A stretch of DNA of 36,016 bases from Escherichia phage T7. The position numbers were made by a program, and so were the translations under genes. Positions 6,269-6,916 of the stretch are shown one piece after another. The notes beneath the pieces were generated by a model. It was not told the DNA's origin, searched no databases, and saw only the letters and a program-made list of their open reading frames with translations. Each line of letters opens with the position of its first letter. Within the stretch, counting starts at the first letter, position 1. Where the stretch lies: sequence record PV223880.1; one strand, 5' to 3'.

Positions 6269-6529
6269 ATGTTTCGACTTCATTACAACAAAAGCGTTAA
6301 GAATTTCACGGTTCGCCGTGCTGACCGTTCAATCGTATGTGCGAGCGAGCGCCGAGCTAAGATACCTCTTATTGGTAACACAGTTCCTTTGGCACCGAGC
6401 GTCCACATCATTATCACCCGTGGTGACTTTGAGAAAGCAATAGACAAGAAACGTCCGGTTCTTAGTGTGGCAGTGACCCGCTTCCCGTTCGTCCGTCTGT
6501 TACTCAAACGAATCAAGGAGGTGTTCTGA
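6269..6529 (+). CDS. 1.6: gene 1.6 protein (86 aa)
   Basis: [31 protein letters not shown]...KRIKEVF. Confidence 0.85.
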
Positions 6530-6564
6530 TGGGACTGTTAGATGGTGAAGCCTGGGAAAAATAA
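6529..6564 (+). pseudogene. 1.7: Stub of gene 1.7 (nucleotide kinase): 11 codons [11 protein letters not shown] then stop; rest of gene deleted
   Basis: atgggactgttagatggtgaagcctgggaaaaataa; overlapping TGATG start typical of 1.6/1.7 junction. Confidence 0.8.
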
Positions 6565-6575
6565 GGATAAATGTT

Positions 6576-6916
<341 letters not shown>

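Follow-up and report, generated by a model that had tools for sequence, protein, structure and literature searches.

Gene 1.7 of phage T7 is represented in the window (the whole stretch of DNA analysed, 36,016 bp) by two short remnants that meet at a single junction, in its usual position between genes 1.6 and 1.8, both of which are intact. The features of the locus are as follows.

6269-6529, plus strand: gene 1.6, intact, 86 aa (ORF list; gp1.6 is annotated at the same coordinates in PV223881; 100% identity to T7 7906-8166)
6529-6564, plus strand: stub ORF, the 5' remnant of gene 1.7 (translation; tblastn match to gp1.7 residues 1-11 only)
6560-6561, no strand: deletion junction, T7 8197 joined to T7 8734 (junction mapping; designed coordinates in Table S2 of PMC12153263)
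6561-6583, plus strand: 3' residue of gene 1.7, 23 nt (T7 8734-8756, ATAAGGATAAATGTTATGCATAA; sequence and frame arithmetic)
6576-6722, plus strand: gene 1.8, intact, 48 aa (ORF list; gp1.8 is annotated in PV223881 and PV223883)

The TGA stop codon of gene 1.6 (6527-6529) shares one base with the gene 1.7 ATG at 6529, which is the wild-type arrangement and can be read directly in the locus sequence, GTGTTCTGATGGGACTG. From this ATG the frame takes in 32 nt of gene 1.7 (T7 8166-8197) and then crosses the junction, where the letters GGGAAAA are followed by ATAAGG, so that a TAA in the stub frame is formed across and just past the junction. Translation of 6529-6564 yields a peptide of 11 residues ending in ...WEK, the N-terminus of T7 gp1.7 (196 aa). 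An earlier note on this DNA had described an ATG at 6529, overlapping with the stop of gene 1.6, from which 11 codons run to a TAA at 6562-6564, and both the sequence read and the translation confirm this description. The stub carries no CDS annotation in the sister records PV223881 and PV223883.

The 3' residue contains a Shine-Dalgarno-like AAGGA together with the gene 1.8 ATG, and it ends in the old gene 1.7 TAA (T7 8754-8756, window 6581-6583). Counted from the ATG at 6529, this old stop is in frame +1; because the 536 bp lost from the gene (see below) are not divisible by 3, the 3' residue is out of frame with the stub, as the note had also claimed. Gene 1.8, which had been placed directly downstream, does indeed follow, starting at 6576, 11 nt past the new stub stop, with gene 2 next downstream. 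Translation of the stub, if it occurs, would thus stop 11 nt upstream of the ATG of gene 1.8, whose own translation it may aid. No promoter, terminator or other regulatory feature is annotated in NC_001604 between phi1.6 (7895) and phi2.5 (9107), and a scan of window positions 6000-7000 for sigma-70 promoters and terminators found nothing.

Alignment to NC_001604 defines what has been lost. Window positions 6128-6561 correspond to T7 7765-8198 and positions 6553-9095 to T7 8726-11268, such that T7 8198-8733 is missing from gene 1.7; the loss, put at about 536 bp in the note by offset arithmetic, is exactly 536 bp. Microhomology at the junction amounts to 1 bp (A), and 8199-8734 is therefore an equivalent description of the same deletion. 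Relative to wild-type T7, what the window retains of gene 1.7 is codons 1-11 and the final 23 nt, the latter out of frame; codons 12 to ~189 are gone. The alignment to T7 gene 1.7 that had been proposed as a check recovers the stub only, and a full-length ORF of about 196 aa is absent between genes 1.6 and 1.8. We also considered whether gene 1.7 had been relocated or split. A tblastn search with gp1.7 against the whole window returned residues 1-11 (6529-6561), residues 189-196 in another frame (6557-6580) and nothing else, and a blastn search of the whole window for the deleted 536 bp returned only chance matches of 13-19 nt; relocation or splitting was rejected on these grounds. The junction is exact and unique, and is not a chance pattern.

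A single Pfam domain, DUF3310 (PF11753), is found in wild-type gp1.7 (a nucleotide kinase of 196 aa, NP_041967), at residues 122-184; this domain lies wholly inside the deleted T7 8198-8733 and is absent from the window. Since the whole of DUF3310 falls in the deleted part, the gp1.7 kinase appears to be lost, and from sequence we infer, safely in our judgement, that no gp1.7 nucleotide kinase would be made. The dTMP/dGMP kinase activity of gp1.7 would confer sensitivity to dideoxythymidine, and a link between gp1.7 and this analogue has reportedly been published. A phage without the kinase should be insensitive to dideoxythymidine and fully dependent on the host dTMP/dGMP kinases, and such insensitivity is what we predict for the phage that carries this genome.

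An end-to-end alignment to NC_001604 shows the window to be a complete T7 genome that includes the two terminal repeats of 160 bp, collinear with that record apart from seven gaps, which together amount to 3,921 bp. One of these is the gap in gene 1.7, and the other six are listed here with the genes removed and the sizes of the deletions; all six are engineered junctions that match Table S2 of PMC12153263.

1256/1257: gp0.4-0.7, 1,481 bp
6127/6128: gp1.4, 156 bp
9094/9095: gp3.8, 291 bp
10814/10815: gp4.3-4.7, 1,019 bp
13000/13001: gp5.3, 338 bp
16287/16288: gp7.7, 100 bp

The source of that table is a description of the SMART method (mBio, 2025; PMC12153263), in which the T7 genome was divided into ten BAC-cloned segments and assembled genomes were rebooted into phage. 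One of the products, T7-B, is GenBank PV223880 (Table S1), and its derivatives T7-B-G, T7-B-GJ and T7-B-J, which are T7-B with payloads, are PV223881-PV223883 (PMC12153263). Two-round Red/ccdB recombineering, with synthetic oligonucleotides of two 40-nt arms each, was used to delete gp1.4 and gp1.7 (both in segment F4), gp3.8, gp4.3-4.7, gp5.3, gp7.7 and gp19.5, and gp0.4-0.7 was lost by omitting segment F2 from the assembly (PMC12153263). T7-B itself has a 36.0-kb genome, a reduction of 9.8%, and is without gp0.4-0.7, 1.4, 1.7, 3.8, 4.3-4.7, 5.3 and 7.7; gp19.5 was kept, and the deletions were confirmed by PCR and whole-genome sequencing (PMC12153263). Its burst size is 197 +/- 9 versus 224 +/- 9 for the wild type and its plaques are comparable; T7-B was selected as the chassis (PMC12153263).

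We base the identification of the window with T7-B (PV223880) on the published coordinates, on a published oligonucleotide and on the three derivative records. The published deletion intervals, in NC_001604 coordinates, are 1257-2737, 7609-7764, 8198-8733, 11268-11558, 13279-14297, 16484-16821 and 20109-20208 (PMC12153263, Table S2). When these seven intervals are cut out of NC_001604 in silico, exactly 36,016 bp remain, and the result differs from the window by 19 substitutions and no indels. The deletion in gene 1.7 equals the Table S2 design (8,198-8,733, 536 bp; PMC12153263), and its six companions (0.4-0.7, 1.4, 3.8, 4.3-4.7, 5.3 and 7.7) match the T7-B design base for base. The oligonucleotide used for the repair of this locus provides a further feature.

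6521-6597, plus strand: footprint of the synthetic, single-stranded repair oligonucleotide HA-gp1.7, with two ~40-nt homology arms, by which the junction is defined (Table S7 of PMC12153263; exact match)

The OCR text of HA-gp1.7 in the supplement is missing one C near the 3' end relative to the window, and 77 bases were searched; these match exactly and uniquely at 6521-6597, across the junction, with no match in 100 shuffles. When window positions 6000-7000 were compared with phage records by megablast, PV223881, PV223882 and PV223883 were each 100% identical at the same record coordinates, whereas wild-type T7 matched at 99.8% identity in three pieces. In length, in the seven deletions and in the gp1.7 junction, no difference was detected between the window and T7-B as published. 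PV223883, which carries an endolysin named LyJDSS3, is the same as the window over its first 20,084 bases, up to the payload inserted after gene 10.

On this evidence the deletion of gene 1.7 was made on purpose, and has been published, in the construction of T7-B, a chassis phage with a reduced genome. Judging from these sequence correspondences, we put at roughly 97% the probability that a seamless deletion, designed in the laboratory for the T7-B chassis genome, left the stub as its scar. The reading of the stub in the earlier note is supported as far as it went, and what it missed was the engineered origin. Its statement that gp1.7 is non-essential also fits, both with the viable T7-B phage and with the deletion of gene 1.7 in the CiPGr study discussed below.

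By the published route, an amp-ccdB cassette was first substituted for gene 1.7 in segment F4 by Red recombineering (PMC12153263). The cassette was then swapped for a single-stranded oligonucleotide of 80 nt, with two arms of 40 nt each that place T7 8197 next to T7 8734, and F4 and the other segments were reassembled and rebooted into phage. This design preserves the overlap between the gene 1.6 stop and the gene 1.7 start, plus the ribosome-binding site AAGGA and the ATG (T7 8749) of gene 1.8. The sparing of the gene 1.6 stop explains why the 5' remnant of gene 1.7 (32 nt) was left, and the sparing of the gene 1.8 ribosome-binding site and ATG explains the 3' remnant (23 nt). The 11-codon ORF results from a deletion length, 536 bp, that does not divide by 3, which takes the 5' remnant into the TAA at the junction.

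A different origin for such a stub would be spontaneous deletion during propagation of the phage, either through slipped mispairing at short direct repeats or through recombination between them, as in the classical T7 deletion mutants. Deletions in T7 non-essential genes are common, which lends this explanation some prior plausibility, and the ends of the gene 1.7 deletion do sit in an imperfect direct repeat of 9 nt (TGGGAAAAA at T7 8190-8198 and TGAGAAACA at T7 8726-8734, 7/9 identical). However, perfect microhomology at the junction is limited to 1 bp, and a perfect direct repeat of several bp with one copy kept, as in spontaneous T7 deletions, was not found there. The gp1.4 and gp5.3 deletions have no microhomology at all, and each starts directly after the A of a start codon; together with the near-blunt junction in gene 1.7, this points to a design based on coordinates. 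Moreover, the junction equals both the synthetic oligonucleotide HA-gp1.7 and the designed coordinates, and the same genome holds six more deletions that fit the design table base for base. We consider spontaneous repeat-mediated deletion very improbable, and the exact in-silico reconstruction effectively refutes it.

The two ends of the gp0.4-0.7 deletion lie at a natural, perfect direct repeat of 13 bp, AGGAAGTCGAGGA (T7 1244-1256 and 2724-2736; window 1244-1256), and the 1,481 bp removed there are the repeat period of 1,480 bp plus 1.

A designed deletion of gene 1.7 could in principle also have reached the window from another T7 construct, either a mutant of the CRISPR/Cas9-based CiPGr series (Yuan et al., 2022, NAR, PMC9825161; records MZ3752xx) or a T7Select display vector, instead of T7-B. 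The CiPGr study was cited by the authors of T7-B for the list of non-essential regions, and the CiPGr record MZ375285 resembles the window in several respects: its deletions in 1.4 and 1.7 have the sizes seen in the window, the one in gene 1.7 being likewise designed, 536 bp long and such that a stub of 11 codons remains and gene 1.8 is intact, and it matches window positions 6000-7000 at 99.8% identity in one piece. In this record, however, the deletions of 1.4, 1.7 and 5.3 are displaced by 1 bp (7608-7763, 8197-8732 and 16483-16820), such that its gene 1.7 junction reads GGGAAACATAAGG rather than the GGGAAAAATAAGG of the window and its stub peptide differs from the window's ...WEK. The deletion in the early region differs as well, as does the set of companion deletions, and the method was Cas9 cutting with 50-bp plasmid homology arms. 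With each of the three compared junctions 1 bp off and a different early-region deletion, a CiPGr mutant was rejected as the source. The window is also gap-free and collinear with the wild type from T7 20209 through T7 39937 at the right end, with gp19.5 retained as in T7-B; gene 10 is consequently unmodified, and with this region as in the wild type a T7Select vector was rejected. An origin from either of these genomes seems to us still less probable than spontaneous deletion.

The displacement by 1 bp may itself say something about how T7-B was designed. Its 1.4, 1.7 and 5.3 deletions (window 6127, 6560 and 13000) lie exactly +1 bp relative to those of MZ375285 (6933, 7366 and 14218). In the CiPGr design the 1.4 deletion covers exactly the annotated CDS, whereas T7-B leaves the A of the ATG. 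The three T7-B deletions look like the CiPGr design with a +1 shift, with CiPGr as the design origin, and the shifts suggest a slip from 0-based to 1-based coordinates as the design was transferred.

The gp1.4 deletion extends into phi1.5, a T7 promoter (6124-6142) that reads TTTAACGACTCACTAAAGG versus TAATACGACTCACTAAAGG in the wild type, with changes at -16, -15 and -14 that may affect the transcription of genes 1.5 and 1.6. Of these three positions, -16 and -15 alone are changed in CiPGr. It is conceivable, but in our view rather doubtful, that the +1 shift (through positions -16 to -14 of phi1.5), or translation of the stub that couples ribosomes into gene 1.8, slightly alters the expression of neighbouring genes and adds to the modest drop in burst size. 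Such side effects, if real, would be a detail of engineering and not new biology.

As the window is a synthetic construct, each of its "missing genes" (0.4-0.7, 1.4, 1.7, 3.8, 4.3-4.7, 5.3 and 7.7) should be taken as a design scar. The gene losses then reflect neither natural decay nor evolution, and matter chiefly as housekeeping. For users of the T7-B chassis, they imply a phage without the gp1.7 nucleotide kinase, and the gp1.7 locus, which served as the insertion site for luciferase, is a validated site for payloads (PMC12153263).

Several of the companion deletions reach beyond, or stop short of, the genes for which they are named. The gp0.4-0.7 deletion begins inside gene 0.3 (ocr), 22 nt short of its end, and the ORF at window 925-1320 encodes 131 aa. 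It lacks YEEDEE, the 6 residues with which the wild-type protein ends, and closes instead with 20 residues read out of frame from what is left, without a promoter, of the 3' part of gene 0.7. The T7-B deletion table does not list gp0.3 as affected (PMC12153263), and gp0.3 has no annotation in the sister records PV223881 and PV223883. The gp4.3-4.7 deletion also takes the 3' end of gene 4.2 and the promoters phi4.3 and phi4.7. The gp7.7 deletion, at just 100 bp, amounts to a disruption of the gene, not its removal.

The 19 single-base differences from NC_001604 are found at window positions 4830, 7781, 11458, 15859, 18854, 20167, 20218, 20317, 20425, 23114, 23862, 23969-23970, 25337, 27870, 31054, 31333, 31337 and 33488; none of the 19 falls within genes 1.6-1.8. 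They presumably represent variation of the laboratory stock, and since PV223883 is identical to the window up to position 20,084, the first five of them are shared with that derivative.
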